A stretch of DNA of 64,000 nucleotides from an uncultured Planctomycetota bacterium (GCA_963823665.1 CAWGMQ010000005.1:672001-736000); one strand, 5' to 3'. Positions 8,206 to 25,528 are shown, counted from the first letter of the stretch. Numbers and translations: made by a program. The notes: generated from the letters alone by a model not told the origin.

Positions 8206-9966
8206 TCACTTCGACTTCAACTCAAGCACCGGATCAAAGCTCGCCGGAGCCGTCTTCAGGCACTCGACCGTCCGCCCCAGCAGAGTCAGCCCCGGCAAGT
8301 CATAGCTCCCGCCGGCACCCGTCAGAATCGGAAAAACAGCCTGGGCGGCCTCGCTCCACTCGCCGGCTTCGTAGAGCGCGAGCGCTCGCTCATATGACTC
8401 GCGCCGATCCTGCCATTCGGGAGTTGCCGTCTCGGCGTGAAGCTCGTGCAGCTCGACGTCGCCGTCAATCCCCACAACTCGGGCGCGGCAGAGCCGGCGG
8501 GTGGCGAAGCTGGTTCCCAGCAGCTTGCGCGTCGAGCCGGTCACGAGCAAGCTCACGCCCAGGTGCTTGGTCGCCCCCTCGACACGGCTCGCCAGGTTGA
8601 CGGTATGCCCGAGCGGGCCGTACTTGAACTTCTGGTGGCTGCCCGTGTTTCCCACCAGTGCCGCCCCCGAGTTGATCCCCACGCCCAGGCCGATTGCTCG
8701 GCCGACCCGCCCTTCCCAGCGGCGATTGAGCTCCGGCAAACCGTCTCGCATCTGAAGCGCCGCCCGGCAGGCTCGCACGGCATGGTCCGGTTGCTCGAGC
8801 GGCGCGTTCCACATCGCCAGCAGCCCGTCGCCGATGTAGTCCACGACGACGCCCGATGTCTCCATGATCCGGGCTGTGAGGTGCTGCATCACGTCCCGGA
8901 TCAGCTCGCACGCCAGCCGCGGTGCGATTTTCTCTGAAATCGCCGAAAAACCGCGGATGTCGGCGAACAGAACGGTCACCTCGCGGTCGCGGCCGTCAAG
9001 AAGCGCCGGGTCGTGGTCAAGCGCGGCGGCCAGGTCGGGCGTGAAGAACTGCTCGAACTGAACGCGCCGGCGTGCCGCCTGCGCTTCGCCCTCCTGGCGG
9101 GCGAGCCCGGCCGCCACGGCCGCGGCCATCACCTGGGTCAACTGGGCCTCGATCGGGCGGATTTCCAGCGACCGCCCGGAGCCCCGGCGTGCCCCGTAAA
9201 CGGCGCCGATCACTTCCTGTGAATCGTCGAGAATCGGCGAGGCGACCACGGCCGTCACGCCTAGCAGGCTCATCGCGCTCGCCTGGAACTGGTCGCCTTG
9301 GTAAAACGTGCGGCGCTGGCTGACGACCGTCTTCAAGATCGACCGGCTGAACTGGCTCTTCGCGTCGTCGTGCGGGGGATAGCAGGCCACCGGGTCCCAG
9401 TCATCGTCACGCCGCAAGAGCACCAACCCGCAGTCGAGTCCGATCAGCTCCACAACGGCGCGTGCCGTCTCGGTGAAGTAGTTCGGTGACGACGCCGCGG
9501 CGCGTTGCACGCCGATCAGCGCCTCGAACCAACGCGCCATCTCGTCCGATTCGGGGGCCGGGCTCAACTGCGGCGCCATCGTCCGTTCGACGAGGCCGGG
9601 CCCAAGCGGTGCGCGGATCGTCTTGAGGGCCGCACCATCGACGGACGATTCAGTGGAGTCTTTCGATTCGATCTCGACAAGCGTGTCGCCCATCTGGAGC
9701 CGGGCGGGCAAAGACGCCAGCAACTCGCGCCCGGGGTCGATCAACGTTCCATCCGCCAGCCGAATGGTGACTTTTCCGCTCAAGTTGCGCAAGAGGACCG
9801 TGTCGTCCGCCTGCGGTTCGAGATAAAGCTGATTGGTGGATACGGTCGGGTCTTGAAGCACTCGCCGCGGAACGTCGCGCGTCGGCCCCCGCCCGAGCTC
9901 GAGCGGCCCCCCGCGATGGACGAACCGATCGCGCTCTGTCCGACTACTGAGCAAGATCCAGAGCAT
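8206..9966 (-). CDS. Class III nucleotidyl cyclase with N-terminal FHA-like and GAF domains and C-terminal TPR-like helices
   Basis: FADIRGFS, DYIGDG, GHTVNLASRVE; N-terminal LELGR...DPTVS; GAF-like FSRSILKTV...VASPI. Confidence 0.9.
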   Translation of the reverse strand: MLWILLSSRTERDRFVHRGGPLELGRGPTRDVPRRVLQDPTVSTNQLYLEPQADDTVLLRNLSGKVTIRLADGTLIDPGRELLASLPARLQMGDTLVEIESKDSTESSVDGAALKTIRAPLGPGLVERTMAPQLSPAPESDEMARWFEALIGVQRAAASSPNYFTETARAVVELIGLDCGLVLLRRDDDWDPVACYPPHDDAKSQFSRSILKTVVSQRRTFYQGDQFQASAMSLLGVTAVVASPILDDSQEVIGAVYGARRGSGRSLEIRPIEAQLTQVMAAAVAAGLARQEGEAQAARRRVQFEQFFTPDLAAALDHDPALLDGRDREVTVLFADIRGFSAISEKIAPRLACELIRDVMQHLTARIMETSGVVVDYIGDGLLAMWNAPLEQPDHAVRACRAALQMRDGLPELNRRWEGRVGRAIGLGVGINSGAALVGNTGSHQKFKYGPLGHTVNLASRVEGATKHLGVSLLVTGSTRKLLGTSFATRRLCRARVVGIDGDVELHELHAETATPEWQDRRESYERALALYEAGEWSEAAQAVFPILTGAGGSYDLPGLTLLGRTVECLKTAPASFDPVLELKSK

Positions 9967-10061
9967 CAAAACCCAACCTGCTGGGCCATGCCGCGCCACT
10001 TTCCATTTGCACAATCGTCACCCGGCCCGAATTCCCTTTCACCGCGCCGGACCGTCTACAA

Positions 10062-10070
10062 ATTGTACCA
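10062..10070 (-). promoter_or_regulatory. Putative extended -10 promoter (TGgTACAAT) for the cyclase gene
   Basis: AT-rich intergenic spacer about 100 nt upstream of the cyclase start. Confidence 0.35.
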
Positions 10071-10080
10071 CAAACACGGA

Positions 10081-12771
10081 TTATCCATGCTCCCGCCACT
10101 CATCGATCAGTGAGGCAACGAGCGCCGTCCAGCCGGTCTGGTGCGAGGCGCCTAACCCGGCCCCCGAGTCACCGTGGAAGTACTCGTAGAACAGAATCAG
10201 GTCGCGCCAGTGTGGATCCTCTTGCAGCTTCCGTTGCCGGCCGTAAACGGGGCGCCATCCGCTTGAAGGATCGCGCGCGAAAATGCTAATCAACTTTTCA
10301 GCGATCGATCGGGCCATCTCGCCGTAGGTGACAGGCTGCCCGAGAGAGCCCGCGGCGCTCACAGCACGCTCCGGCCCGTACGCCTTGGCCAGCTTGCGCA
10401 GCGACTCGATCAGCAGGAAGCAGGTTGGAAACCAGATCGGACCACGCCAGTTCGAGTTGCCTCCCTTGATCTTGCTGATCGCCTCAGCCGGCTCGTAGCC
10501 AACCGATTGCCCTTCGAAGACAAACGGCGACGCCTGGTGCGCTTTGGACAGGCTGCGGATGCCGTGGTCGGATAGGAACTCCGCCCTATCCCACACCCGC
10601 TCGAGCATCTTCCCGAGCTGGGCGTCGTTCACGATCGTCAGCACGTGCGTGACCGCACCCTCTCTTTTCACCGTATGCACCACACCCTCGATCAGGTCGC
10701 CACGGTTCGAAAGGAACCAATCAAGGTTGCGCCGGAAGCTTGCGAACGGCTCGATCCAAGCCTGCTCGAGCCGCTCGACGGCAAAGAGTGGAATCAGGCC
10801 GACCAGCGACCTCACCCGCAGCTCCCCGAACGATTGGTCGGGCCGCCGCAACACGTCGTAGAAGAATCCGTCGCGGTCGTCCCAGAGCGCATACGGGCGA
10901 TTCCCCATATGCTTCATCGCGGCCGCGACGTAAACGTAGTGCTGGAAGAATTTGGTCGCCAGCCCCTCGTACACCGGGTTTTCACGCGCCAGCTCGAGCG
11001 CGATCCGCATCATGTTCAGACAGAACATGCCCATCCAGCCGCTGCCGTCGGACTGCTCGAGCACCGTGCCGTCCTTGAAGTGAGTCGAACGGTCCAGCAC
11101 GGTGATGTTGTCCAGACCGAGAAACCCCCCCTCGAAGATGTTGTTGCCCGACTGGTCGACCTTGTTAACCCACCAGGCGAAATTGATCAGCAGCTTGTGG
11201 AAGCAGCGCTCGAGAAAAAGGCGATCAGCAACTCCGGTGCGCAGCCGCGCCATGTTGTAAACTCGCCACACGGCCCAGGCGTGCACCGGCGGGTTTGTGT
11301 CGGAAAACTCCCACTCGTATGCCGGGATCTGCCCGTTCGGATGCTGGAACTGCTCGAACAGGAGCAGCCAGAGCTGATCCATGGCGTAGCCCGGGTCGAC
11401 GAGCGCATAGCCGACGCAGTGAAACGCCAGGTCCCAGGCTGCAAACCACGGATACTCCCACTTGTCCGGAACCGACATCACCCGCAGCGAATTCAAATGC
11501 CGCCAGTGCTCGTTCCTCACCGACCGGCGCGACTCCGGCGGCGGGAAAGCCGGGTCATCGCCTTCGAGCCATCGGTTCACATCGAAGAGATAACTTTGTT
11601 TGCTCCAGAGCAGGCCGGCCAGCGCCTGCCGCTGGATGCGCCGCTCGTCTTCGCTCGCCGTGCCCGGATGAATCTCTCGGTAGAATTCGTCGGCCTCCGC
11701 CTTTCGCGCGGCAATGATCTCATCGACTTTGCGCAGAGCCGGCCGTTCTCCAGCCGCCTCTCTGAGCCGGAGCCGGATCACCGCCGAGCTCCCCGGCGAT
11801 ACGGCGTCGAATCGGTAGTGGAGCGCGGCCTTGGTCCCGATTTCGAGGGGGTTGATGCACGGCTCGCCCTGAATGATGAAGCGGTGGAATGCATCCTTGA
11901 CGTAGGCGTGTGCATGCAGGCGACCGGCACCCTCGACCCTCGCACCGTTGGTCTCGTTGTCGGTGAAAAGAAGCCGCCCGCCAGGGGGTGCATCCAGGGT
12001 GCGCCGCCCAAGGTGATATTCAACCGGAACGGTCGCCAGCGATTGAACTCCGGTGTCATCGATCGCCAGGCTAAAGCCGTCCGGACCCTCGGAGCCGCGC
12101 CGGATCGTGGGCCGGGTGGCTGAGACGGGGCCAAACGCCCAGGTATTCCGGAACCACAACTGGGGCAGGATAACGAGCGGCGCAGGCTCGGGACCGCGAT
12201 TGAAAGCCTCGATGCGGATCACGATGTCTTCGGGTGTGGCCTTGGCGTATTCGATCACGATATCGAAGTAGCGGTCCTGGTCGAAGATTCCGGTGTCGAT
12301 CAGCTCGAATTCGGGCCCCTGCCCGTTCCTGGCCCTGTTCTCCTCGATGAGACGGCAATAGGGATACTCGTCCTGGGGATACTTGTAGAGGTACTTCATG
12401 TATGCATGTGATGGCAAATTGTCGAGGTAGTAGTAACACTCCTTGACGTCCTCGCCGTGGTTTCCTTCATGCGGAGTCAGCCCGAAAAGGCGCTCCTTGA
12501 GGATCGGGTCGCGGACGTTCCAGAATGCGGGGGCGAAGCAAAAGAGCTGAAAGCGGTCGCAGATGCCGGCAATGCCGTCCTCTCCCCAGCGGTAGGCCTT
12601 GCTCCGCGCCTGGTCGTGAGAGAGAAATCCCCACGCTTTGCCGTCGGCGCTGTAGTCTTCGCGCACGGTTGCCCATGCGCGCTCGGAGACATACGGGCCC
12701 CACCGACGCCACGATCCGATGTCGTCGCGGATCTCGGCCAGTCGTCTGTGCTCGGCCGTATCTGGAAGCAC
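10081..12771 (-). CDS. GH63/MGH1-like glucosidase
   Basis: [62 protein letters not shown]; likely GTG start at 12771. Confidence 0.9.
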
Positions 12772-12775
12772 GCGC

Positions 12776-14270
12776 TCACCGCCCTCGAGACGGGAACCGG
12801 CCCGGTTCAAATCCGCGCGGGCTGTCGAAGCCTTTGGGAAACTCCAGCCGCTCGAGCAGCTCGCAAAGTTGCTTGTGCAGCGCGTCTTGGTCTGGTGTGT
12901 GCACCGGGGCCGAAGCCAGCGACGATTGATACAAAGGCACCAGTGAAAGGTACGCGCTGCGCGGCCTCGTCCCAGCTTGCAACCTGCTCCCACGCCTTCG
13001 GATCGTCGATCCGCTCGATCAAGCCCTCGATCGTCTTGACGTCGAACTTGTGCTTTCCGACATCGTCGAGGCACTTGTCGATCGACTTTGATGCATACTG
13101 CACAGCCGACTTGATCTCCGGAATCGCTGCTTGCTTCTCCATCAGGAGCGCGAGCCGGCCGAGTGCCTCCGCTGTTGCCGCTCGATTCCCTGGGCCAACG
13201 GCAGGCGAGGCGAAGAGCGCCTCCGTGCCGGGCAAGATCCAGGTTCCCCAGCGCAGTGAACCGACGGCCACGCCGTTGGCTCGAAGCGTGCGACGCCAGG
13301 TCTGGTCGCGCAGGTCGTGATGGCACGAGAAGCAGCCAAATTCGGCGAATTCCGGCCAGGGTGCCGTCGGCTTGTTGTTCGCAGGATTGATCCCGGGCAG
13401 GGGCTCGGGAGGAGCCTCGGACGCGGCGGCGCGTTTCTCTGGCTCGGGCAATCGTCGCTCCAGTAGCGCGAGCGCTGCCTTGATGGTGGTCAATCGGCCG
13501 ACGGCCCACGCCCGTGCAGCGAAGTTCTCCGCCGAAGCACCCGATCCGTCTTCACCGGGTTTCTTGTACTTTTCATCCCAGTGCGGCGGCATGTTTTCCA
13601 GATACGCGGAAAACTCGAAGCTCAACCGGGGATGACCGGCGGCGATCAGGTCGTGATTGACGTCGCGCACGGTTAAACCGTCAGAACGCTCGCCCACGTG
13701 GCAGCCTGCACAGATCTCCGCGCGGACTTTCAGGTCCTTGGTGTTCAGCAGGCCCTTGGCAAACTTGGCGGCGGCATCAAGCGTCGTCCACTCCGCGGTG
13801 GTGTGCGGCCCGATGTAGTTCGCCGCGGCCCCGTGGCACGCCTCGCAGCCAACTCCGTCGGAGTTCAGCCAGGTGGTCCGTTCGAGCTCGGCGGCCGGCC
13901 GCGTCGTCGTGTGGCACGCCAGGCACCGCTCGTCTTCGAAAGCCTTCAGGTGCTTGCCCTCTGATCCCGCAAGCTTGCTCTCGATACCCTCGGAGCGCCG
14001 GTCGAACAGGACCGCGTACGCCCGGGAGTGCTTGCCGGACGACATCCACGTCGTGTGCTCGTTCCGCCTCACGCTCGTGAGCGGCGACTTCACTTCCTTG
14101 ATGCTACCGTGACACGCCACCGCCGAGCACGATCCCGCGCCTCGGAATTCGGATGCCGCGACGGGTGTCGTCGCGCGGCCGGTTCCTTGCCGGGTCGGCT
14201 CATTTCCCCGGCAGAGCGCGGCAATCACGCAGCCGGCTAGAAGCAATAGACCATAGCGTGCCCCTCGCAT
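12776..14270 (-). CDS. Secreted multiheme cytochrome c (c554/c552-like, 5 heme motifs); frameshift ~12955
   Basis: Signal peptide; [39 protein letters not shown]-terminus continues in ORF 12776..12982. Confidence 0.85.
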
Positions 14271-14494
14271 GCCGGCTCCCGCAAAATCGGTGCGACACAA
14301 AAGTTCTGCCCGGCCGGACCTGTGCCAGGATACGGCAGGAACGGACGAAAGCCCAGGAATTAGTGGGCTCAAGACTTTTTTTGTAATATAACATGTCAGC
14401 GCGATCGTGGGCGGAGCCTCCTCGGGATCGCGCATGCTCGACTGGCCGAACGAGCCCGGCGCTCGAATCGAATCTCCCGAGGCGGAGTGATTGA

Positions 14495-15487
14495 ATGCTG
14501 GTCTTCGGTCGTGAGAACTGGCGAGCTCACCTTCCCTGGTGTGTGGCAATTCTCGCGGCAACGGCGGCGGCGGCGGTTGGTTACATCGCTTACGGGTTCA
14601 GCGCGGGCTCCTGGAGCCCGCCGGGAGGCGCAAGCCCGCCAGGGTTCGTCTACGGGCTCGCGGGCGGCGCCATCATCTTGTTCGAAATGTTGCTCTGGCC
14701 GCGAAAATCGCTCTGGCGCGGCTGGCGCCTCGGCAGGACCAAGCTCTGGATGACGGCCCACATCTGGCTCGGGCTCTTGACCATTCCCTTGCTGCTTTTG
14801 CACGGCGGCTTTCATTTCAGCCTCGGCAGAGCCACCCTCGCCGCGGTTCTGATGTGGCTCCTGGTCCTCGTGGTCGGCAGCGGCATCTTCGGTCTCGTGC
14901 TTCAGAACATTTTGCCGAAGCTCATCCTCGAACAGGTTCCGGCGGAGACGATCCACGCACAGATCGGGCACATCCTCGAACAGTATCGCGACGAGGCCCA
15001 GCGGCTGGTGGACGTGACCTGCGGCGATACCGAGTCCTCTGAAAGTGGACGCACGATTGCCGCTGTCCCTGATCGGGCTTTCGAGTCGCGTGTCGCTTCG
15101 GGATTGGTTCGTCAGGTCGGCCGCGTTCAGGGCAAGGTGGTGCAGTCGAGCATTGAGGCCAGTTGGGTACCCGGCTCGGAAGACTTGAGAAGCTTCCACC
15201 GCGACCAGGTCGACCCTTACCTTCGCGCCCGTTCCGGAACCCGGATGCGGCTGGGATCGCAGACTCAAGCGAGAGCCATGTTCCAGGCGGTCGAGGCTCG
15301 GCTCCCTCCGGCGGCGCACGACGCGGCGAAGCGCCTGGCGGATTTTTGCGAACAGCGCCGGCAATTCGATCTCCAGACGCGGATCCACTTCTGGCTGCAC
15401 GCGTGGCTGGGCGTTCATGTCGCCCTCTCCGTCGCCTTGACACTGCTGATGATCATTCACGCCGTTCTCGCGCTCGAGTATCTCTAG
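14495..15487 (+). CDS. Integral membrane protein, probable di-heme b (ferric-reductase-like) subunit
   Basis: About 5 TM helices; two His pairs 14 residues apart (HIWLGLLTIPLLLLH, HVALSVALTLLMIIH). Confidence 0.75.
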   Translation: MLVFGRENWRAHLPWCVAILAATAAAAVGYIAYGFSAGSWSPPGGASPPGFVYGLAGGAIILFEMLLWPRKSLWRGWRLGRTKLWMTAHIWLGLLTIPLLLLHGGFHFSLGRATLAAVLMWLLVLVVGSGIFGLVLQNILPKLILEQVPAETIHAQIGHILEQYRDEAQRLVDVTCGDTESSESGRTIAAVPDRAFESRVASGLVRQVGRVQGKVVQSSIEASWVPGSEDLRSFHRDQVDPYLRARSGTRMRLGSQTQARAMFQAVEARLPPAAHDAAKRLADFCEQRRQFDLQTRIHFWLHAWLGVHVALSVALTLLMIIHAVLALEYL

Positions 15488-15500
15488 CCTCAGGTAGGTC

Positions 15501-17117
15501 ATGAACGGAGAAACCGGCAAACGGCGCCAGTCGCGAATCGAGCTCACGTACTACCAGACCGCCGACTGGTATGTGTGGTGGCGGCGCGGTCTCTGTCTAT
15601 TCGCAGTCCTCGCCGTGGCGATCTGGATCGTGAAATCGGCCATCGCCAGCCGCGGCGCCACGTCTCACCCATGGTTGCCCGTCCCCACCACGATTGCCTC
15701 CAAGGGCCCCCTTTCCCAGCCGCACGCGATCTGGGACTCGACATGCGATGCATGCCACGTTTCGTTCGCCCCGATCAACGGTTCGCGCTGGTCGCCCGCA
15801 CTCTGGGCAAGTAAAGACGGGGGAAGCAAGAAGTGCACCGCCTGCCATGCCGGGCCGGCTCATCATCAGAGTCAGCTAAAGGAATCCGTCCCCGATTGTG
15901 CCGAGTGTCATCGCGACCATCGCGGGCACGATTCGTCTCTCCTCTCCATGGACGACTCGGTATGCACAACCTGTCACCAGAAACTCGCCGATCATCGCGA
16001 TGGGCCTGGCGTGGTTGTGAACATCCCCGACAGCGTGACCCGATTTGACGAAAAAAACCACCCTGGCCTTTCCGCATCCTGGACCGCGCGTGCGAAAGAC
16101 ACGAAGCGAATCAAGTTCAACCACGCAAGACATCGGGCCCTTGGGATCGCGCTCGAAAAGGGCGGAAAACCGTGGACTTTCGCCGACCTCGCGGAACCTG
16201 ACCGAGCTCGGTACGGCTGGAAGGCCGGCGTGTCGCCCGATACTCCGATCAAGCTCGAGTGCGCAGCGTGCCATGAAACTGATGCGAGCGCGGTCGCCAC
16301 ATCAGTCAATCGTGGCTCGCTGAATGCCGGCGAGCCGCGCAGCCCGGGCGCCTACATGCGGCCGATTGTCTTCGACTACCACTGCGCAGCCTGCCATCGT
16401 CTCGAGTTTGACGCCAAGCTGCCGAACGCGACGATGCGCCATGGAATCTCTGCGCAAGAAGTCTTCGCCGATCTGAACCAGCGTTACACCGCGGAGGCCG
16501 TGAGAGCCGATCCAGAACTGCTCAGGCAGTTCGTCCCGCCGCGGCCGATGCCAGGGCAACCTGCTGTGCCCGCGAAAGAGCGGATCAAGCAGGCAGCAGT
16601 TGAGAGTTATTTCACTGCGGCGAGGTTTCTCTTCGCTGCCGCGATCGATGAAAACGTCCGCCGGGCAGCAAAGTTACCCGCAAGCCGGCGAGGATGCGTG
16701 GAGTGCCATGTCCTGAAACCCGGTGCGGGGCCGATCGTGAATCTGGATTCACTCGCATCGATCGAGATTGCACCGCCGCTCATGACGCCCGTCTGGCAAG
16801 AGCACGCGTTTTTCAATCACACGACTCATCGTGCGCTCAATTGTGCCGCGTGCCACGCGGACGTCGATCTGTCCAGGGAAAACGGCGACGTGCCTCTCCT
16901 GCCGGACATCACGAAATGCGTCACATGCCACTCTCCGGCCGGCACGCTGCGCGCGGGTCAGCCCGGAGGCGCAAGCACCTCGTGTACCGAGTGCCACCGC
17001 TATCACAACGGCGACAACCCCGACCAAGGGCTGGGCGCCAGGGCGCGGCGAGGTGCACTCGAGCAGACGCTCGAGAGATTCTTGGGGGGGATGCCAGAGG
17101 CCGGTTCCGCGAAATGA
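15501..17117 (+). CDS. Membrane-anchored decaheme cytochrome c (cytochrome c3-like)
   Basis: One N-terminal TM helix; 10 CxxCH motifs counted. Confidence 0.9.
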   Translation: MNGETGKRRQSRIELTYYQTADWYVWWRRGLCLFAVLAVAIWIVKSAIASRGATSHPWLPVPTTIASKGPLSQPHAIWDSTCDACHVSFAPINGSRWSPALWASKDGGSKKCTACHAGPAHHQSQLKESVPDCAECHRDHRGHDSSLLSMDDSVCTTCHQKLADHRDGPGVVVNIPDSVTRFDEKNHPGLSASWTARAKDTKRIKFNHARHRALGIALEKGGKPWTFADLAEPDRARYGWKAGVSPDTPIKLECAACHETDASAVATSVNRGSLNAGEPRSPGAYMRPIVFDYHCAACHRLEFDAKLPNATMRHGISAQEVFADLNQRYTAEAVRADPELLRQFVPPRPMPGQPAVPAKERIKQAAVESYFTAARFLFAAAIDENVRRAAKLPASRRGCVECHVLKPGAGPIVNLDSLASIEIAPPLMTPVWQEHAFFNHTTHRALNCAACHADVDLSRENGDVPLLPDITKCVTCHSPAGTLRAGQPGGASTSCTECHRYHNGDNPDQGLGARARRGALEQTLERFLGGMPEAGSAK

Positions 17118-17131
17118 GCTGATAAGCGCCC

Positions 17132-17230
17132 ATGGGCGAGCCCATCAACGTTGATGAATCGCTGGTGGAGCGCCTGCCCTTGCCAATAGCCAAACCCGTC
17201 CGCCGGGCCCAGAACGCCGAGACATCGGTT
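17132..17230 (+). pseudogene. Truncated gene start, resembling the N-terminus of planctomycete Ser/Thr kinase-TPR proteins
   Basis: MGEPINVDESLVERLPLPIAKPVRRAQNA, then runs into the antisense toxin gene; family match is from memory only. Confidence 0.4.
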
Positions 17231-17599
17231 TCACGGGATGAACGTCACCTGGTCTCGCCATTGGTCATCGTCTGCGGCATGTGCGGCTGCCGCGAGGAAT
17301 GCCAGTAAGTCCGCGAGTTTTGAGCGCGCACGAACGATGAACAGGCCCGGCGAGTTGCGGCCGGCTCTTTGGTGGGCCGCGAACTCGGAGATCATCGTCC
17401 GCCTGTCACGGGAGATCAGTACGCGTCCAGCGGCCTCAGCCCACTGCAGAATCTCTGCGTCAGGGGTTGAGAGCGGCAGGTCTGGAGGATCACCGACGCG
17501 GGTCGCATCGATGGGATCCGCGGAGACGGCATTGTGAGAACGAATCGCCCGCCAAAGGTCGCCACGGAAATGCTCGTCGAGAAGATAGCGGAGAGCCAT
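17231..17599 (-). CDS. DUF5615 PIN-like toxin (VapC45-type)
   Basis: RYLLDEH...PDAEILQWAEAAGRVLISRD. Confidence 0.85.
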   Translation of the reverse strand: MALRYLLDEHFRGDLWRAIRSHNAVSADPIDATRVGDPPDLPLSTPDAEILQWAEAAGRVLISRDRRTMISEFAAHQRAGRNSPGLFIVRARSKLADLLAFLAAAAHAADDDQWRDQVTFIP

Positions 17600-17602
17600 A
17601 CG

Positions 17603-17935
17603 TCACGAGTCAGCCGACGACTGGCCGCTGGCGGCCCGCTCGGCGATCAGGCGGCGGATCCGGAGCAGGGCAGGACTGGGATTTGACGCCGACTCCTGGC
17701 GTTCGAGATCGGCGCGGTACTCGGCGACGTAGGTATCCACTTCCGGCCGATGAGCTTCGCGAAAGGCGATAACTCGCCGGATCAATTCGAGGTCAAGCGA
17801 TGGGAGCTCATCGCGAATTTCATCGGGGCTGCGCCCGCTCTCGACCAAATCGATCAGCGAATAGAGACCGATACGGTGGCCTGTAATGACGATTTCGCCG
17901 TTGGGCCATTGGGTCAGAAAGTTCGGAAGATTCAT
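17603..17935 (-). CDS. DUF433 antitoxin
   Basis: ITGHRIGLYSLIDLVESGRSPDEIRDELPSL; AGGGGG RBS; 3 nt from the toxin gene. Confidence 0.85.
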   Translation of the reverse strand: MNLPNFLTQWPNGEIVITGHRIGLYSLIDLVESGRSPDEIRDELPSLDLELIRRVIAFREAHRPEVDTYVAEYRADLERQESASNPSPALLRIRRLIAERAASGQSSADS

Positions 17936-17990
17936 GAGGCCCCCTTTCGCGCTGCCGTTCACCGAACGACATCTATGATACCGCTCGCCT

Positions 17991-18164
17991 TCAGCGACCG
18001 CCAGGAATGGCGGAGCGTACGACGCCGTGTTTCTCGGCGAAGTACTGCCTGCGTCCACCAAAGAGGTCCGGTTGATCTAGGAGCGTGAAAAGGCGCTGTC
18101 GGGAATAATCAGGCAAAAAGCTCACCAATTTGGGGAACGGGTTTTGATCGAACAGCAGCTTCAC
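17991..18164 (-). pseudogene. Degenerate second DUF5615 toxin
   Basis: GTG start overlaps the upstream TGA; (M)KLLFDQNPFPKLV then similarity is lost. Confidence 0.6.
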
Positions 18165-18319
18165 GCCAAAGAAACCAACATGCTCCGTTCTCGTTCCGCC
18201 GCGAAAGGTAAGGCCGCCTGAATGTCCTCGGGCTCAAGGTGGGGAAAGTCATCCCGAAGTCCAGCAGCCGACACGCCGGCCGCCAAGTAGGAAAGCACGT
18301 CGTAAACTGTGATGGGCAT
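18161..18319 (-). pseudogene. 5'-truncated second DUF433 antitoxin (absent from the ORF track)
   Basis: Manual translation: (VRG)MPITVYDVLSYLAAGVSAAGLRDDFPHLEPEDIQAALPFAAERERSMLVSLA*. Confidence 0.75.
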
Positions 18320-18361
18320 GCCGCGGACCCGACCGAGGCGATCGACGGGGCACCGCTGCCA

Positions 18362-18885
18362 TTATTCGTTTTTCACTCGCTCGAGCACGTAGATGTACTT
18401 TCGGACGCCTACCGTTGTATTGAATTCGGTGGGTCTAGGCAGCTCAGGATCGTAGGCGGAGCAGATCGTCAGCTTATCGCCCTCCAACAGGTAAATTCCC
18501 TTCAAAGTCTGCTCTCCTAGACGCACCGTCGAAAGGTCAACGCACTTTGGATCTTTGCTTTCGTCGAATTTGAGTCCGTATTCGGCGGTCCGCCGGTTGG
18601 GTCGAATCCATTTGGTGCCGTTGATCGTGTGTTCTGCGCCAGGATTTTCGCGTCGTCTTTACCGGAAAACTCGCAACGAACAACCTACCATTTCCCTTGC
18701 AGTTTCTCCTGATCAGACTCGGCTTCAACGACGGCAGTCAATGAAGAGTGGCCGGCACCGGCCTCGGCCCGTGAACCGGTTTGGAGCGCCAAGCGCATTG
18801 CGGGAAGGAGCGAGGCCACGCCCGCTGCAAAGACGAGTCGAGAAATTCGAGCACTCCGCCAGCGATCTGTCTCAACGTCGCTCAT
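18362..18885 (-). pseudogene. TIGR03067 domain protein pseudogene
   Basis: DQEKLQGKW*VV (in-frame TAG), frameshift ~18640, then KFDESKDPKCVDL...KGIYLLEGDKLTIC...RPTEF...VLERVK. Confidence 0.8.
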
Positions 18886-19107
18886 GGTAGACTCCAAACG
18901 TGGTGAAGCCTCTTCCAGCACCCGAATGACCGGGAGCGCGATGGACGACCGCAACCGTCTCGCTACCACGCTCAAGCCATCGAGGCGATGCTAGCCTTAT
19001 TCGACTGACGAGCCTACACTCGATGTTGGTTCTCGATTCGTAGTGCGACCGTGGAATTGCCGCAGACTCCGCTTCCGCTTTAGATATTGCCGGGGATTTG
19101 TTTTTTC

Positions 19108-20472
19108 GTGAGCCGACAACTTGCCATCTATGGGGGCAGCTTCAACCCGCCGGGGCTTCATCATCGCGCGACGGTCGAAATGCTGTGCAGGCACTTTGAT
19201 GAAGTCGTGATCGTGCCCTGCGGACCGCGACCGGATAAGCCGGTCACGAACGACGTCGAGCCGATCCACCGGGCGGCCATGGTCGACCTGACCTTTCGTG
19301 CCATTCCCAAGGCCCGCGTCGAGCTCTTCGACCTGGAGTCCAGCACGTTCACCCGGACTTACGACCTCGATCGAAGATTCAGAGCGGAGGGAACGCTCTG
19401 GCATGTCGTCGCCGACGAGTTCGTTCGCCGCGAGCAGAACAACGAATCAAACATTCAACGTGAATGGACGCGAGGACGTGAACTGTGGCAGGAGGCCAAT
19501 TTCGCGATCTTGAACCGTTCTGGAGCTCCACTCGAAGAGGCGGAGCTGCCGCCCCACCGTCGCGTCTTTGAAATTGACCGCGACGGGTCGAGCCTGGTCA
19601 TCCGCAATCGAGTCTTCCATCGCCAGTCGATCGCCGAGCTCGTGGTCAAGGAGGTTGACGCCTACATCCGCCGGCACAGGCTCTACCAGGGCGTCGCCTC
19701 ACCCCGGCAAACGAGACTCCGGCCGGAGAGGCAGAGCTATCTCGTCGTTGCCGATGAGCGCAACGCGGCGTCACGCGCCGTGGCCGATCGACTCGCGGCC
19801 CACAGCGGCAACGATCCCGAGCTGATCGTGGTCGTGGGCGGCGACGGCACCATGCTGCACGCCATTCGTCAACACTGGCGGCTGCGCCTGCCGTTCTTCG
19901 GGATCAACACCGGCCACCTCGGTTTCTTGCTCAACGACTCGCCCGAGGCCGAACCGGACGAGCAAGACCTCGTGCTCTACCATCTGCCCCTGCTGCGGGT
20001 CGAGCTCGAGCCGCTCGAAGGCGGCCAAATCGTCGCGCTGGCGTTCAACGACGCCTGGGTCGAGCGAGCGACCGGCCAGACTGCGTGGCTCAGGCTGCTG
20101 GTCAACGACCAGGAGCGAATCGAGAAACTCGTCGCCGATGGCGTGCTCATCGCCACCGCGGCCGGCTCAACTTCGTATGCCCGCGCGATGGGCGCGACGC
20201 CATTGCCACTCTATACAGCGGCCCTGCTCCTGGTCGGCTCGAATGTGCTGAACCCGCCGCAGTGGCGGCCTGTGATCCTGCCGGCTGATTCCCGGATCGA
20301 GGTCAGGACACACGACCCGGTCAAGCGACCGCTGAACGCGTTCATCGACGGGATTCCCCAGGGCGTCGTGCAAGCGCTTCACGCCCGAGTGAGCAACACG
20401 GCCGCCGTCGAACTGGCGTTTCTGCCCAACAATGACCCGTCGCTCAAATTGGCGAAGCTGCAATTTCCATGA
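19108..20472 (+). CDS. Bifunctional NadD-like adenylyltransferase / NAD kinase fusion
   Basis: N-terminal AIYGGSFNPPGLHH, SSLVIR, VDAYIRRHRLY; C-terminal VVGGDGTML, GINTGHLGFL, FND, ADGVLIATAAGSTSY. Confidence 0.9.
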   Translation: MSRQLAIYGGSFNPPGLHHRATVEMLCRHFDEVVIVPCGPRPDKPVTNDVEPIHRAAMVDLTFRAIPKARVELFDLESSTFTRTYDLDRRFRAEGTLWHVVADEFVRREQNNESNIQREWTRGRELWQEANFAILNRSGAPLEEAELPPHRRVFEIDRDGSSLVIRNRVFHRQSIAELVVKEVDAYIRRHRLYQGVASPRQTRLRPERQSYLVVADERNAASRAVADRLAAHSGNDPELIVVVGGDGTMLHAIRQHWRLRLPFFGINTGHLGFLLNDSPEAEPDEQDLVLYHLPLLRVELEPLEGGQIVALAFNDAWVERATGQTAWLRLLVNDQERIEKLVADGVLIATAAGSTSYARAMGATPLPLYTAALLLVGSNVLNPPQWRPVILPADSRIEVRTHDPVKRPLNAFIDGIPQGVVQALHARVSNTAAVELAFLPNNDPSLKLAKLQFP

Positions 20473-20583
20473 CCCGCTCGAGAGCCGTCGTTTGAGCAAG
20501 AATGCATTCGATCTGGTTGCGCACGCATTCCTCGGCTAGAATTCAGTTGTTCCGCGAAACTTGACGAGAGTGGAGACGGTTCG

Positions 20584-20844
20584 ATGTCCACCGATTCTTG
20601 CCGCGAGATCGAGACGTTTTACCATTTCCTGGGCGAGCGGCTTCAAGAAGGCTCGGTCAACCTTTCGCCCGAGGAGAGCGTCGAAGCATTTCGTGCTTAT
20701 CAACGCGACCTCGAGCGCCTCAGGACGGAGCTGGAGCCGGCGCTCGATCGTTTCGACCGAGGCGACTCGGCAAAGCCATTCGATGCCGAGGACGTGAAGC
20801 GCCGAGGTCGGGAGCGGCTCGCCCGCGAAGGAATCACCGACTGA
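20584..20844 (+). CDS. ParD-like antitoxin
   Basis: 86 aa ending FDAEDVKRRGRERL, directly upstream of a ParE-like toxin. Confidence 0.65.
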   Translation: MSTDSCREIETFYHFLGERLQEGSVNLSPEESVEAFRAYQRDLERLRTELEPALDRFDRGDSAKPFDAEDVKRRGRERLAREGITD

Positions 20845-20858
20845 GACTGCGCAGGCCC

Positions 20859-21167
20859 ATGGCAACTGTCGAATTTGACGACGACGCAGTCGCTGACATG
20901 GACGGGATCTACGATCACATCGGTCGATCGCTTAAGAGTCCTCAGGCTGCGGACCGCATGATTGACCGCATTCATGCCGCTTGCGAGTTGCATGCAAGTC
21001 AACCTGGGATGGGGGAGCTCAGGCCCGATCTGGCACCGGGCGTTCGAGTCTTTGCCGTCGGATCGTACGTTGTAGTCTACCGGCCTTGCGATGACGGAAT
21101 TCGTGTGCTTCGAGTGTTCCTTGGACGCCGCAACTTTCCGGCATACTTTCATGACAAGCCGGTTTGA
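20859..21167 (+). CDS. ParE/RelE-family toxin
   Basis: AVADMDGIYDHI...PGMGELRPDLAPGVRVF..SYVVVYR..IRVLRV. Confidence 0.85.
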   Translation: MATVEFDDDAVADMDGIYDHIGRSLKSPQAADRMIDRIHAACELHASQPGMGELRPDLAPGVRVFAVGSYVVVYRPCDDGIRVLRVFLGRRNFPAYFHDKPV

Positions 21168-21191
21168 ATCGATGGGCCGGCTGATCTTCGA

Positions 21192-23681
21192 TCAAACGAT
21201 CACGTCTCTAGCGTCGGCCATGCTGCCCCGCACCAAGTCCAGTAACTCGCTCCCCTTCATGCGGTGCGCCGCGTCGTGCGGGCAGGCGTAGACGCAGCTT
21301 GGCTCGTGGCCGGGGCCCAGGCTTGTGCAGACGTCGCAGGTGGTCGCCTTGCGCACTTCGGCCTGGGCTTTCTTGTCGAATTGCTCGACCATGTTGATAT
21401 TGCCATACGGGCAATTCTCAGCGCAGAGGCCGCAGCCGATGCACCAGTTCTCGATGATGATCTCGGCTGACTGGTGGCGGCGGATCGAGCCCACGGGGCA
21501 GCCGACCATGCAGTACGGGTCGAGGCACGATCGGCACGAGCTCGCAACCAGGAACTTGTCGAACCGCAGGCCCTCGCGGATGAGCCGGGTCACTCCTTGA
21601 TGCGTATCGGCGCACGCCTTTGTGCACTCGTCGCAGCGGGTGCATTTCACCAGGTCGAGGACGAGCAGGTTCTGGGCATTCATCAGCCCTTGATCGAGGA
21701 AGGCCTCGAGCGGCTTCGCGTGGGCTTCCCAGACGTGGCGCTGGTTGTCTTCCAGTCGCTTGCGCGCCTCGGCGATCACCGCCGTTCGGAGCGTGGGCGC
21801 TTCGTCCAGGATCGCGCGGAAGTCTTCGGGCGTGATTCGCACGAGGTCGACGTGATCCAGCGCCGCGCAGGTGGCGGTTCGAACGCCGGCCGGGGCCAGG
21901 TCGCGCAGCTCGGGGAGGTCGGAAAGCAGCCCGATCTCACCGATGTACCCGCCGGGGCCAACGTAGTTCAACACCCGGTCTCCTCCGGCGCGAGACTCGG
22001 AGACTTTCACGAAGCCCGTCCTGACCAGATACAGGCCGTCGGTCGCCCGGTCGCCCTGCCGAAAAATCACCTGGCCGGGCTCGAACCGCAAGAGCGAAAC
22101 CCGCGGGCGGAGATTATCCACGACGCGCTGGAATCGCTCCTCGTCGGCCCGCAGGGGCGCGAAAAGGGGAACGCTGCGCAGGTGGCCGTCGATCGTGCGC
22201 GCGCGATACTTCGCCTCGAGCACGCGGCGGAACGACGGACTGCGCTGCATGATGTAAAGGACATTCCGCAGCATCTCCAGGACCGTGCAATCCTCGCCCG
22301 CGGTGACCGTTGCCGAGCGCGGGTAATGGCTCATGCAGGTCATCTCGCCGAAGATGTCGCCGGCCTTCATCGTGGCCTGCGGCCGGCCATAGGGCAAAGC
22401 GACCGGCGCGTCGACGGAGATAAAGTCACGCACGTGGTCGCCTGGGCGCGTCGTCAGCTTGCTGGTGAACCAGCCGATCGCTCCCCAGAACCCCGCGCGC
22501 GGCTGGTTCTCGACATGCTCGACCGGCGTCCGGAGGAAAATGTCGACCGAGCCCTTCTCGATGAAGAAGGCCGTGGCGCCGTTGTCGCCCTCGCGGCAGA
22601 TCACCTCTCCCTTGCGATACACACGGCGTTTGACCGCGTGAATGTTCGATCGCAAGAACGCGTGCGAGATTCCCTGGAACGCCTCGCGAATCTCGGAGAT
22701 CTCGTGCCCGAGCAGATCGCTCACCGAAACATCGGTTCCCTCGGAGAACCTGGTCTCGATCACGCGCTTGTGCGTGAGCGCCCCGGTCGGGCAGTCGTCG
22801 GCGCACTCGCCGCAGGCAACGCAGCTCGATTCGCCCATGGGCGAGTCGAGGTCGAAGGCGATCCGCGCTTTAAAGCCCTTGCCCATCCGGCCGATCACGT
22901 GGTTTTCCTTGATGACGTCGCAACCCCGGACGCAGCGGTCGCAGAGGATGCAGGCGTTGTGATCGACGGCGATGACAAGCGACGAGTTGTCACGCGGAAG
23001 CTCGATCTCGCGGCGCTCGAGCCGCGACTCGGTTGCTCCGAATCGCTTGGCAAGCGCCTCGAGCTCGCACTCGCCGGGAGCCTCCCGTTCCTTGACGCAT
23101 GGTGTGGGATGGTCGGTCATCAACAGCTCGGTCAGCACCTTGACCGCCGCGTGCAGCCGCGCTTTCGCCTTGGCGTCGGGCGATGCGACCGTGTCGACGA
23201 TCATCGTCGGCTCGACGCGATGCTGGCAGGCCGGAATCAGCTTGCGGCCCGGCTCGACGCGATTCGTCCGCTTCGAGTACTTTGAGACCTGCACGACGCA
23301 CACGCGGCAGACCCCCACCGGATCCATGTATTCGCGATGGCAGAGGGTCGGGATTGGATTGGCCGCGTGCAGCAGCTTGTCACGATAAAGTTCGCTGACG
23401 GCGTCATAGATGGTCGTCGACCGCGGGATCACGCGGCCGTGCGCGTCGCGGCGGAAGTTACCCTGCGCGTCGGTCGAGGGCACGGCCTTCTTGACCTCGA
23501 TCTCATGGCCGTCGACGGTGATCTTGATCGTTTCCTCGAGGTCGGCCGCCGTGGCCTTGTCGATGCGGATCAACCGGCCCTCGAAGTCGCGGGCGAAGAG
23601 ATCCTCTTCCTCCCAGACCGGGAAGGTCGCGCGGTCGTCTCGCTCGCGGCCAGGGATGTGGTCTACCGATCCGGCGCTCAT
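21192..23681 (-). CDS. Fe-S protein: NuoG/HydA-like N-terminal Fe-S region, two cNMP-binding domains, DmsB/NrfC-like C-terminal polyferredoxin
   Basis: LCH..VCRVC..AC (2Fe-2S); CILCDRCVRGC, CVACGECADDCP; FGEM..PRSATV, IGEIGLL..RTAT; CTRCDECTKAC, CRSCLDPYCMVGCP, CIGCGLCAENCP, CDVC..CVYACP. Confidence 0.9.
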   Translation of the reverse strand: MSAGSVDHIPGRERDDRATFPVWEEEDLFARDFEGRLIRIDKATAADLEETIKITVDGHEIEVKKAVPSTDAQGNFRRDAHGRVIPRSTTIYDAVSELYRDKLLHAANPIPTLCHREYMDPVGVCRVCVVQVSKYSKRTNRVEPGRKLIPACQHRVEPTMIVDTVASPDAKAKARLHAAVKVLTELLMTDHPTPCVKEREAPGECELEALAKRFGATESRLERREIELPRDNSSLVIAVDHNACILCDRCVRGCDVIKENHVIGRMGKGFKARIAFDLDSPMGESSCVACGECADDCPTGALTHKRVIETRFSEGTDVSVSDLLGHEISEIREAFQGISHAFLRSNIHAVKRRVYRKGEVICREGDNGATAFFIEKGSVDIFLRTPVEHVENQPRAGFWGAIGWFTSKLTTRPGDHVRDFISVDAPVALPYGRPQATMKAGDIFGEMTCMSHYPRSATVTAGEDCTVLEMLRNVLYIMQRSPSFRRVLEAKYRARTIDGHLRSVPLFAPLRADEERFQRVVDNLRPRVSLLRFEPGQVIFRQGDRATDGLYLVRTGFVKVSESRAGGDRVLNYVGPGGYIGEIGLLSDLPELRDLAPAGVRTATCAALDHVDLVRITPEDFRAILDEAPTLRTAVIAEARKRLEDNQRHVWEAHAKPLEAFLDQGLMNAQNLLVLDLVKCTRCDECTKACADTHQGVTRLIREGLRFDKFLVASSCRSCLDPYCMVGCPVGSIRRHQSAEIIIENWCIGCGLCAENCPYGNINMVEQFDKKAQAEVRKATTCDVCTSLGPGHEPSCVYACPHDAAHRMKGSELLDLVRGSMADARDVIV

Positions 23682-25528
23682 GACGATCGCTCCGCAGGGC
23701 CGAGCACCCCGATGTCACTCGAGAACGACTGGAGCACCGTGGAAAGGGGCTTTGCCGCGGACATGCCCAGTCCGCAGATCGAGGTCAGCTCGAGGATCTC
23801 CAGTAGCTCGTTCACCAGCGCTTTGTCACGAGCGAGGTCCTCGGCTGTTGCCTGTCCCCGTGCGATGCGCTCGCCGACGGAGACAAGCTTTTGCGAGCCG
23901 ATCCGGCAAGGCACGCATTTGCCGCATGACTCGTTGCGAAAGAACCGCGAAGCGTTCAGCGCGTGGTCGAACATGTTCACGCCTCGGTCTTCTGCATACA
24001 CGGTGAGTCCGGCGCCGAGCATGAGGTTCAGGGTGCGGAACTCGTCGATGTCGAGCGGCAGCTCGCGGATGTCGAGTGTGTCGCGGCCGGCCGGGAAGTT
24101 CCGCTCGGACCTTGGCCCGACGTCGGCCTTCGAGAGAACGGCGGGGATGAAACCGCCGGAAGGCCCTGACGGCGCAACGGCCTTGAGAGGCAGGCCGTCG
24201 CGCACGCCTCCTGCCAGATCGATCAGCTCGCCCAGGGTCGAGCCGATCTCGACTTCAAAGACGCCGGGCTGGCGCACATCGCCGCAGATCGAGAAAAACC
24301 GCAGCCCCGGCGCGCCGGCTTTTCCTTTGGCGGTGTACCACGGACTTCCTTTGCTACCCGAATCGGCATACCACTTGCCGCCGTTGAGCACGATCGCGGG
24401 AACCCAGGCGAACGTTTCGACGTTCGAGAGCAGTGTGGGTTTGTCGAAGAGGCCGTTGGTCTCGAGCTGGGGCGGCCGGTTGCGCGGCTCGGCCCTGTGC
24501 TCCTCGATGGCCTCGATCAAGGCCCCCTGCTCTCCGCAGACGTAACCGCCGGGGCTGATGAATACCTCCATGTCAAACGGCATTCCGGTGCCGAGCATGT
24601 TCGATCCCAGCACACCGTCATGCCGCGCCGCCGCGAGGGCCTGGTTCACAGCGTGGATCTGGTCGTGATATTCGTGGCGAATGTAGATATATCCATATTT
24701 CGCTCGAACGAGGAGGGCCGCCAGCACCATCCCCTCGATGATCAGGTCGGGCGTGCGCAGGAGGAGCTCGCGATCCTTGAATGTCGCCGGCTCGCTTTCG
24801 TCGGCGTTGCAGACGATAAATTTTTCGTCGCCCCGGGCCTCGAGCACGTCTCGCCATTTCTGTGCCGCGGGAGTGCCCGCGCCCCCCATGCCGCGCAGGT
24901 TGGCGGTTTCGAGCTCGGCGATGAAGCTCGTGCGAACGGCCTGGCGATCCTGTTCACCGGCGGCAGCCTTGAGCTTGCCGGCAAAGTCGCGAGCGGCCTG
25001 GTAGAACCGCGAGTTTGCGGTGGGATCCGTGGCTCGCCCGTAGGGGTCGATCCGCCAGGGTCGCGGCGAGCGATCGACGGCATCGGGCGGCACGTCCTGG
25101 CTCTCCAGGTGCGCCGCGACGATCGTGCGTAACCGCGCGGCAAAGTCGGCAACAACCGGGCGCTCCAGGACGCGCGTCTCTTCCGGCTTTCCCGGACGGT
25201 GCAGCTCGATCAAAACGGCCGGTGCGCCGTCGCAGCGGCCCAGGCACGACACACTCTCGACCTTGACGCGGTTCTCGCCGCCGAACTCGGCCGCGACGGC
25301 CTCGAGCGCCGCGAGGCAGCCAGGTGCGCCGCGCAGGTGGCAGGCGATATCGCGGCAGACGTGCACCTCGACCGGCGGTGGTGGATGCAGCCGGAAGTGG
25401 GGAAAGAAGCTGACCACCTCGTGAATCCGGTGCAGCGGGACATCGAGCCGGGCCGAGAGGCTCTCGAGATCCTCCCGTTTCAGATAGCCGTTACGTTCCT
25501 GGATTGCACGAAGCTGGTGGACGAGCAT
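23678..25528 (-). CDS. NuoE-NuoF fusion (FMN/Fe-S NAD(P)H diaphorase module)
   Basis: CRDIAC...CLGRC; LRGMGGAG, CNADESEP, YVCGEQGAL, GPSGG, ESCGKCVPC, SICGLG; 4-nt overlap with the next gene. Confidence 0.92.
   Translation of the reverse strand: MLVHQLRAIQERNGYLKREDLESLSARLDVPLHRIHEVVSFFPHFRLHPPPPVEVHVCRDIACHLRGAPGCLAALEAVAAEFGGENRVKVESVSCLGRCDGAPAVLIELHRPGKPEETRVLERPVVADFAARLRTIVAAHLESQDVPPDAVDRSPRPWRIDPYGRATDPTANSRFYQAARDFAGKLKAAAGEQDRQAVRTSFIAELETANLRGMGGAGTPAAQKWRDVLEARGDEKFIVCNADESEPATFKDRELLLRTPDLIIEGMVLAALLVRAKYGYIYIRHEYHDQIHAVNQALAAARHDGVLGSNMLGTGMPFDMEVFISPGGYVCGEQGALIEAIEEHRAEPRNRPPQLETNGLFDKPTLLSNVETFAWVPAIVLNGGKWYADSGSKGSPWYTAKGKAGAPGLRFFSICGDVRQPGVFEVEIGSTLGELIDLAGGVRDGLPLKAVAPSGPSGGFIPAVLSKADVGPRSERNFPAGRDTLDIRELPLDIDEFRTLNLMLGAGLTVYAEDRGVNMFDHALNASRFFRNESCGKCVPCRIGSQKLVSVGERIARGQATAEDLARDKALVNELLEILELTSICGLGMSAAKPLSTVLQSFSSDIGVLGPAERSS

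Follow-up and report, generated by a model that had tools for sequence, protein, structure and literature searches.

The 64,000-nucleotide stretch GCA_963823665.1 CAWGMQ010000005.1:672001-736000 of an uncultured Planctomycetota bacterium (the window, within which all positions are counted) encodes a NuoE-NuoF flavoprotein, an iron-sulfur (Fe-S) relay with cyclic nucleotide-binding (cNMP) domains, a putative heme-carrying membrane protein and multiheme cytochromes, which together appear to form a modular conduit that exports reducing power from the cytoplasm under cyclic-nucleotide regulation. We rate this reading slightly above an even chance. Judged by its genes, the system is real, conserved and mechanistically coherent, while the gating itself is what we infer. 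A first-pass annotation had proposed a wire leading from NAD(P)H through flavin mononucleotide (FMN), Fe-S clusters and heme b to periplasmic multihemes, and this is supported by gene order, domain fusions, ligand conservation and a co-fold. Scans of the window for open reading frames and Pfam domains placed every gene named in that annotation where it had been reported; the start of the pentaheme gene moves from 14561 to near 14270.

Electrons would enter at a NuoE-NuoF fusion protein of 616 residues (23678-25528, minus strand; PF01257, PF01512, PF10531 and PF10589). Pfam and PDB alignments locate in it the sites of the 2Fe-2S cluster N1a, FMN and the 4Fe-4S cluster N3. NuoEF modules oxidize NAD(P)H, and Fe-S chains and bis-histidine hemes carry electrons; the fusion would perform the oxidation at FMN and, going by its motifs, without bifurcation. 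Its gene overlaps the start of that of an 829-residue relay (21192-23681, minus strand), which comprises a 2Fe-2S site (C114, C125, C128 and C152), a vestigial histidine-ligated site, a 2[4Fe-4S] pair (C244-C297), two cNMP domains and a DmsB-like domain with 16 cysteines in four groups (C680-C800), corresponding to four 4Fe-4S clusters. The N-terminus had been called NuoG-N; it is indeed an Fe-S relay of this type, but it is closer to the N-terminus of the FeFe hydrogenase HydA or of HoxU than to NuoG. Pfam and NCBIfam found no NuoG molybdenum (Mo)-less C-terminal domain, the TIGR01959 score in the comparison with complex I is 335.6, below the cut-off of 558.65, and the DmsB-like domain scores under the DmsB and NrfC equivalog cut-offs. 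Because the histidine-ligated site was non-canonical in all 73 homologues that could be parsed (75 were examined, 2 remained unparsed) and had lost all its cysteines in 16 of them, it is probably off the electron path. Electrons would pass from N3 to the 2Fe-2S cluster and the 2[4Fe-4S] pair of the relay N-terminus and on to the four-cluster DmsB-like domain, which would sit where a hydrogenase has its H-cluster.

With the NuoEFG, HoxEFU, FdsGBA and HydABC diaphorases the input module shares the NuoE- and NuoF-type domains and the N-terminal relay of 2Fe-2S and 2[4Fe-4S] clusters. It differs in that there is no Mo, NiFe or H-cluster subunit and no membrane arm, the relay runs on into cNMP and DmsB-like domains, the histidine-ligated site is vestigial and the flavoprotein carries no C-terminal ferredoxin. 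The electron donor may vary with lineage. In the window fusion the motif CGEE reads CGEQ, and glutamine occupies this position in 23 of 44 matched NuoF sequences, all from Planctomycetota loci; the other 21, including the acidobacterial ones, have glutamate. In complex I, the glutamate reportedly excludes NADPH (a finding ascribed to Morina et al. 2011). Since the residue differs between Planctomycetota and acidobacterial copies, the donor would be NADPH or NADH depending on lineage, and for the glutamine-type Planctomycetota copies we infer a preference for NADPH.

The relay would hand its electrons to a five-helix membrane protein of 330 residues with a cytoplasmic helical insert (14495-15487, plus strand), which is single-copy in this genome. 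Its two H-x13-H pairs, H89/H103 and H308/H322, were invariant in an alignment of 30 members, and a model (predicted local distance difference test score, pLDDT, 88) places them on the third and fifth helices. The protein is predicted to hold two hemes b, in an arrangement like that of the bis-heme carriers of the ferric reductase/NOX/MsrQ type, a family marked by two histidine pairs 12-13 residues apart on two membrane helices. The ferric reductase domain PF01794 was weakly matched by 7 of the 30 members at E values up to 1 (best 2.5e-5), and an Atlas cluster automatically named 'putative ferric reductase like' scores 0.94 against the protein. A profile search of PDB sequences gave no significant solved relative, and fold searches with the model returned generic helical bundles only (Foldseek, none at E<=0.001; VIA, best Z 9.2). 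In NOX, yeast FRE and MsrQ with Fre, electrons from NAD(P)H cross the membrane via two hemes b held by histidine pairs on two helices, and NOX activity is ligand-gated. The window protein would resemble these in that respect and differs by its large cytoplasmic insert, entry via at least seven Fe-S clusters and exit into multihemes; no solved member matches it significantly in sequence or fold.

Docking of the polyferredoxin on the membrane protein is supported by modeling. The first-pass annotation had named co-folding of the subunits as a check, and a prediction with the membrane protein, two hemes and relay residues 640-822 passed with a score of 0.71, the best of three controls giving 0.00. 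Of solved pairs, 116 of 157 attain the mark applied, and of mismatched pairs 2 of 215, figures that are only approximate for a prediction with its own alignments and a ligand. Runs shared at least 64% of contacts, and the pLDDT of the partner was at least 67. The interface lies on the cytoplasmic face of the membrane protein (residues 71-86, 137-154 and 298-302), with 9 of its 25 interface residues among the 40 most conserved of the protein, and on the ferredoxin side, at residues 677-693 and 792-803, it is formed around the cluster of C680/C683/C686/C800. Likeness to known complexes of a ferredoxin on a cytochrome b may contribute to the score. With the DmsB, FdnH and NrfC ferredoxins, which work with FdnI, DmsC or NrfD anchors, the relay shares DmsB-pattern cysteine groups beside a membrane subunit; it differs by the absence of a Mo enzyme, an anchor of another family and a docking that is predicted to use the ferredoxin's opposite end.

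From the membrane protein, electrons would cross to the periplasmic side. The gene for a membrane-anchored, periplasmic decaheme c cytochrome (15501-17117, plus strand; ten CxxCH motifs) starts 13 bases after the membrane-protein gene, and divergent from both lies that for a c554-like pentaheme cytochrome (12776-14270, minus strand; four CxxCH and one Cx4CH, with a frameshift near 12950). In 87 sequences the decaheme has exactly ten non-motif histidines that are 98-100% conserved, and in 88 the pentaheme has five conserved distal histidines. Because the number of distal histidines equals the number of hemes, all hemes in both proteins can be six-coordinate carriers rather than catalytic sites. 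The docked polyferredoxin would reduce the bis-heme membrane protein, which would pass electrons across the membrane to this all-bis-histidine decaheme and the pentahemes. Searches of PDB sequences gave weak matches only for the pentaheme, the decaheme and the larger cytochrome described next.

The system extends beyond the 17 kb proposed for it: the genes listed there are in place, but further genes lie 15-25 kb before the window start (G000:C5:647407-656825; L055, L056). They encode an HbpS-like heme-binding protein, a probable beta-barrel, a decaheme cytochrome with LVIVD repeats and a phosphodiesterase-like metallo-beta-lactamase. The barrel protein has no Pfam or NCBIfam match; it ends in an aromatic residue and, by language-model likeness, resembles clusters named 'alginate export family' (0.95-0.99). 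The LVIVD decaheme (1350 residues) has 14 conserved non-motif histidines for ten hemes among 30 sequences, enough to accommodate a further metal or active site; it may be the terminal enzyme. It has no solved relative, and its model (pLDDT 43.5) was too poor for a fold search. Gene context suggests that electrons would probably travel via the beta-barrel to this LVIVD-propeller decaheme at the cell surface; the final acceptor would most likely belong to the class of metal, humic or heme-bound substrates outside the cell or in the periplasm. With the MtrCAB, PioAB and UetA-J conduits the wider cluster has in common a decaheme wire, a probable beta-barrel and a second large multiheme, and it differs in being fed by cytoplasmic NAD(P)H instead of the quinol pool; no component reaches a curated Mtr cut-off. 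The uet cluster of Tenderiales was considered as a parallel by way of LVIVD and rejected, since its LVIVD protein lies outside the cytochrome cluster and the available part of that preprint describes no cNMP or membrane-heme gene (bioRxiv 10.1101/2022.05.06.490989). Acidobacterial decahemes are noted, in the accessible portion of another paper, as possible markers of iron reduction (PMC3669403).

Conservation of the neighborhood, in Planctomycetota and in other phyla, which the first-pass annotation had named as a check, was far above chance. Membrane-protein matches occurred in 65 of 301 Planctomycetota genomes and in 22 of 61 close relatives (window genome included). Two sets of loci were compared, both chosen by similarity to the window and with at least five genomes in common. 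The first, anchored on the membrane protein, comprises 39 loci: 20 kb around the 20 best of 64 matches in the phylum and around 19 of 21 close relatives, some ending at contig borders. Within 10 kb, the decaheme is present in 37 of them, the c554-like pentaheme in 32, the cNMP/Fe-S protein in 30, NuoEF together with the NuoG-N-type domain in 15 and the LVIVD decaheme in 16. The beta-barrel and the HbpS-like protein each occur in 11, and the phosphodiesterase-like gene and the pair of glucose-6-phosphate and 6-phosphogluconate dehydrogenases each in 3. For the second set the ferredoxin domain was the anchor; the species collection holds at least 580 relatives, and the analysis took the 80 with the highest similarity, 56 of them on loci of at least 15 kb. 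NuoEF was found in 49 of these 56, the membrane protein in 47, the decaheme in 47 and all four core genes in 40. In Acidobacteriota, 20 of 26 loci have NuoEF, relay, membrane protein and decaheme in this order on one strand; Planctomycetota loci are mostly ordered membrane protein, decaheme, NuoEF, relay.

What enters and leaves the core is best argued from its exchangeable partners: the NAD(P)H modules come in four unrelated kinds, and at the opposite end there is a fusion to a multiheme. By domain content, the core is fed by at least four such modules: NuoEF/NuoG-N, a TrxR-like domain, the FNR-like PtdC and a NirB-like protein. The cultured Tautonia sociabilis (L111) has a locus of the NuoEF type. 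A plasmid record of Sphingobium herbicidovorans (L075) holds the same core and outer module, with a TrxR-like flavin domain at the start of the cNMP/Fe-S protein; a tblastn search of the plasmid collection gave no match to the membrane protein, though the Sphingobium homologue is clear by profile. Among 20 loci around weak membrane-protein matches, 5 have an FNR-like reductase with PtdA- and PtdB-like genes, and 6 have a ferredoxin/TrxR-like domain fused to the membrane protein ahead of a 23-heme cytochrome. The subfamily of L076-L080 and L094 joins a ferredoxin/TrxR (YpdA-like) part to the membrane protein, followed by 23-, 7- and 11-heme cytochromes, without cNMP domains. At L081:7745-15249 a 1646-residue NirB-like flavin/FHA x4/cNMP/ferredoxin protein adjoins a membrane protein with a five-heme fusion, and Ser/Thr kinases are the flanking genes. 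An NDH-2-like flavoprotein-cNMP fusion adjoins the cluster in a planctomycete (L045:12995-14773) and in acidobacteria (L135:2135, L139:2214) and is a candidate for a second nucleotide-controlled NADH dehydrogenase. In L020, L022, L075 and L083 the decaheme or the cNMP/Fe-S protein carries a fused FHA or FHA-like domain at its cytoplasmic N-terminus, with kinases nearby; these fusions and the Ser/Thr kinases make control by phosphorylation possible.

The annotation had also held that no characterized system has this layout. This is true of the layout as a whole, but the core has already been named ptdD/E/F/G, so the layout is less new than was thought. In the literature searched, a single description of such a core was found, the penta-, tetra- and decaheme cluster ptdABCDEFG, which was described from its genes; in the available part of the text its function is stated to be unknown and nucleotide control is not discussed (bioRxiv 10.1101/2023.11.21.568154). 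The comparison was made against surrogate loci from Planctomycetota, each fitting all seven descriptions in the paper (L085, L087, L088, L090 and L091). PtdE corresponds to the C-terminal two thirds of the relay (29% identity over 550 columns, E 9e-57 to L085:7960-9771) and PtdF to the membrane protein (hhalign probability 99.4, E 1e-21, all four histidines aligned). PtdG corresponds to the decaheme: a profile of the window family scored the five ptd-type decahemes at E 3e-44 to 1e-33, the unrelated LVIVD decaheme at E 5, and the 23-heme neighbors at E 2e-31 and 1e-23 with weaker best domains. For PtdD, the c554 profile matched the L085 tetrahemes at E 2.5e-24 and 1.6e-16, the window copy having a fifth heme.

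None of the remaining ptd genes was detected. In the window genome (16.5 Mb, 91.9% complete) PtdC was missing apart from an 84-residue 2Fe-2S match elsewhere, and queries from L085 detected neither the PtdA pentaheme with its beta-sandwich nor the PtdB porin, which the linked beta-barrel does not match. The systems thus have the PtdD/E/F/G homologues in common, whereas here NuoE-NuoF and a HydA/NuoG-type Fe-S domain fused to PtdE replace PtdC, and the outer module consists of another beta-barrel, the LVIVD decaheme and the HbpS-like protein, with linked cyclase and phosphodiesterase-like genes. By gene content, the window system has the ptd core but does not fit the definition of the ptdABCDEFG operon.

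Cyclic nucleotides gate channels, transcription factors and a few enzymes; of a direct gating of a transmembrane electron-transfer chain we know of no description, and none was found in the literature searched. The involvement of a cyclic nucleotide, which had been proposed together with switching of electron flow, is supported by intact pockets, enrichment of cyclases and a linked phosphodiesterase-like gene; the switching itself is a proposal. Both cNMP domains lie between the Fe-S halves of the relay and retain their pocket residues, G445-E446..R455 in the first and G581-E582..R601 in the second. Among 101 homologues G445 and E446 were kept in 101, R455 in 100 and R601 in 95. A class III cyclase occurs in 8 of the 39 membrane-anchored loci, in four families, compared with 0.39 expected by chance from the 150 class III cyclase matches in the 39 genomes, an enrichment of about 20-fold. 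The window genome has four class III cyclases in its 16.5 Mb, one of them 4.5 kb from the membrane gene. The metallo-beta-lactamase of the outer cluster is related to class II cyclic-nucleotide phosphodiesterases. The two domains would bind a nucleotide that the linked cyclase produces and the linked phosphodiesterase-like enzyme removes, and so open or close the gap between the Fe-S halves. A reason for such a gate is that an always-open wire would drain NAD(P)H and depolarize the cell.

The nature of the signal can be estimated from the cyclases. The window cyclase is an FHA-like/GAF/class III protein by Pfam (8206-10014, minus strand; probable start near 9966) that retains the metal-binding aspartates D352 and D396 and the transition-state residues N473 and R477, and at the positions governing base specificity it has Asp392 and Gly466 instead of Lys/Thr. 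Its best PDB match is Cya2 (2W01), a guanylate cyclase with glutamate at the base position that becomes an adenylate cyclase by the E488K substitution, as stated in the accessible part of the source (PMC5995499). Asp392 is acidic as in Cya2 but is not glutamate, and the second position is glycine as in Cya2. The signal is therefore probably cyclic GMP (cGMP), with another base possible since aspartate is not glutamate. Among 20 cluster-linked Planctomycetota cyclases, 15 have Asp/Gly, 3 have another non-lysine residue with glycine, one is a fragment and one is an unrelated Arg/Thr enzyme, while all seven cluster-linked acidobacterial cyclases have Lys/Thr (the two that were checked are CHASE2 cyclases). 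These residues argue for cGMP in Planctomycetota and cyclic AMP (cAMP) in Acidobacteriota. In its most specific form, which we put forward tentatively, cGMP or cAMP from the dedicated cyclase would move the cNMP domains and bring the Fe-S halves of the relay within tunneling distance, so that NADPH is discharged via a new bis-heme membrane family to the cell surface.

Several observations weigh against the conduit as proposed. What points to gating of electron flow is the position of the cNMP domains and the identity of neighboring genes; 31 of the 39 loci have no cyclase within 10 kb, 38 of the 39 genomes hold class III cyclases anyway, and the ptd-type locus L085 has a degenerate second pocket. 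The CGEQ motif is not universal, three of the glutamate-type NuoF copies being paralogues in the window genome itself, and many relatives, among them L018, L023, L027 and L153, have the cNMP/Fe-S gene but no NAD(P)H module in the locus. Closely related genomes are not independent in the locus counts. In the window genome, 4 kb separate the two halves of the system, which are encoded on opposite strands. The end of the DmsB fold that docks in the co-fold is the one that faces the Mo catalytic subunit, not the membrane, in the Dms, Fdn and Nar enzymes, which is either a real difference or a modeling error.

Some of these points would fit the same outward wire with cNMP domains that serve as scaffold, dimerization, localization or other-ligand modules, control being exerted by kinases and FHA domains or by transcription. 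Besides the loci that lack a neighboring cyclase and the degenerate pockets in some relatives, this would explain the subfamily in which flavin domain and membrane protein form one fusion that lacks a cNMP domain, the FHA domains fused to the relay or decaheme (L020, L022 and L083) and the Ser/Thr kinases found in 11 of 40 locus rows. It does not explain why the pocket arginines persist in nearly all homologues, why cyclases are so enriched, or why the phosphodiesterase-like gene sits inside the cluster in several genomes, the window genome included. We regard it as unlikely, though it is the alternative that survives best.

The membrane protein could also be a quinone-reacting anchor like FdnI or NarI, with no direct wire from cytoplasm to periplasm. 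NAD(P)H would then reduce quinone, as in a complex I substitute that is regulated and does not pump, or the decaheme would receive its electrons from quinol. Ferredoxins of the DmsB type usually deliver to bis-heme or NrfD-type anchors that react with quinone, and prokaryotic cytochrome b561 was weakly matched by 6 of the 30 members (best E 4e-4). We give this little credence, as the decaheme follows the membrane gene in most loci of both sets (37 of 39 and 47 of 56), fusions join the membrane domain to a multiheme (L081) or a flavin domain (six loci), and the histidine pattern on helices 3 and 5 resembles that of ferric-reductase/NOX-type transmembrane carriers.

For the regulated outward conduit, direction is suggested by energetics: transfer from NAD(P)H to cytochrome is downhill and aided by the membrane potential, and the reverse needs a very low-potential donor or bifurcation. 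Bifurcating flavoproteins are distinguished, in the accessible part of a published survey, by A/E..M near the NADH site, phenylalanine near FMN, GGPSG in the SLBB domain and extra ferredoxin clusters on the beta subunit (PMC7311640). At the three positions a motif survey found T..K, tyrosine and SGPSG in the window fusion, which also has no C-terminal ferredoxin; each of these published features points to the non-bifurcating type, and bifurcation was ruled out on this basis. Inward flow or sensing, in which an outside donor reduces NAD(P)+ via the cytochromes or the chain reports the outside redox state, had been offered in the first-pass annotation as a reverse mode and appears quite improbable, on thermodynamic grounds in particular. 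Porin-cytochrome conduits do work both ways, and cyclase, kinase, FHA and TIR genes are common neighbors, but transfer to NAD(P)+ would be uphill and opposed by the membrane potential, the flavoprotein lacks the bifurcation signature, the NADPH-making oxidative pentose-phosphate genes flank the cluster in 3 of 39 loci, and no redox-sensing output domain is fused to the chain.

The genes do not form a single operon here, since both strands are used and a glycoside hydrolase and toxin-antitoxin genes interrupt them. As had been noted, the window lacks a Mo-bisPGD subunit, a NiFe or FeFe hydrogenase large subunit and a proton-pumping antiporter subunit; genome-wide Pfam searches map Mo enzymes, NiFe hydrogenases and antiporter subunits (the last on other contigs) elsewhere in the genome and found no FeFe hydrogenase. 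The scrambled order, the inserted toxin-antitoxin genes, those remote hydrogenases and Mo enzymes and the frameshifts in the pentaheme, LVIVD decaheme and phosphodiesterase-like genes would suit a stand-alone cytoplasmic diaphorase that works for one of those hydrogenases or Mo enzymes and lies in a decaying neighborhood, but this is the least probable reading of all, because two Hox-type hydrogenases and complex I each adjoin NuoF copies of their own, all cofactor ligands are intact, the proteins of this very genome pass in the co-fold, and a same-genus genome has frameshifts in other cluster genes, as expected of assembly indels, so that the frameshifts look like assembly noise.

Other genes in and around the locus are less constant. 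A NadD-NAD kinase fusion (19087-20472, plus strand, by Pfam), which had been counted as a member, is a local neighbor: it occurs in none of the 39 membrane-anchored and 1 of the 80 ferredoxin-anchored loci. The fusion would make NADP from the mononucleotide in one polypeptide, and it stands beside the relay in just two genomes, this one and G301 of the same genus. A GH63/MGH1-like glycoside hydrolase (10081-12780, minus strand, by Pfam) is a recurrent but inconstant neighbor and probably a passenger; it stands beside the cluster also in L032, L067, L145, L164, L169 and L172, of Planctomycetota and Acidobacteriota. Glucose-6-phosphate and 6-phosphogluconate dehydrogenases with transaldolase/PGI occur in L034, L036 and L037, and together with the GH63 genes they hint at a sugar-fed supply of NADPH. 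Several toxin-antitoxin genes or fragments lie between the two halves of the system (17231-18520 and 20584-21167), among them the passengers identified by Pfam as a DUF433/DUF5615 pair (17231-18061, minus strand) and a small antitoxin-like reading frame with ParE (20584-21167, plus strand). At 25744-28225, two tandem paralogous coiled-coil membrane proteins of 386 and 415 residues without a Pfam match resemble, by eye, polysaccharide chain-length regulators.

Compared with ptd, whose core was already named, what is new here is the NuoEF/NuoG-N input, the LVIVD/beta-barrel output and the probable control by cGMP. If the proposal is true, bacteria would have in this system a parallel to the regulated NADPH-oxidase burst, its output being multiheme cytochromes and possibly a catalytic LVIVD decaheme. 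It would also give abundant soil aerobes, which are not known for extracellular electron transfer, a route of this kind that does without quinone. The core is widespread in soil Planctomycetota, Acidobacteriota and Alphaproteobacteria, which are rich in multiheme cytochromes without an assigned role. That one core accepts four unrelated NAD(P)H modules settles which donor and direction are likely in the unstudied ptd family, in a form that can be tested in cultured hosts.

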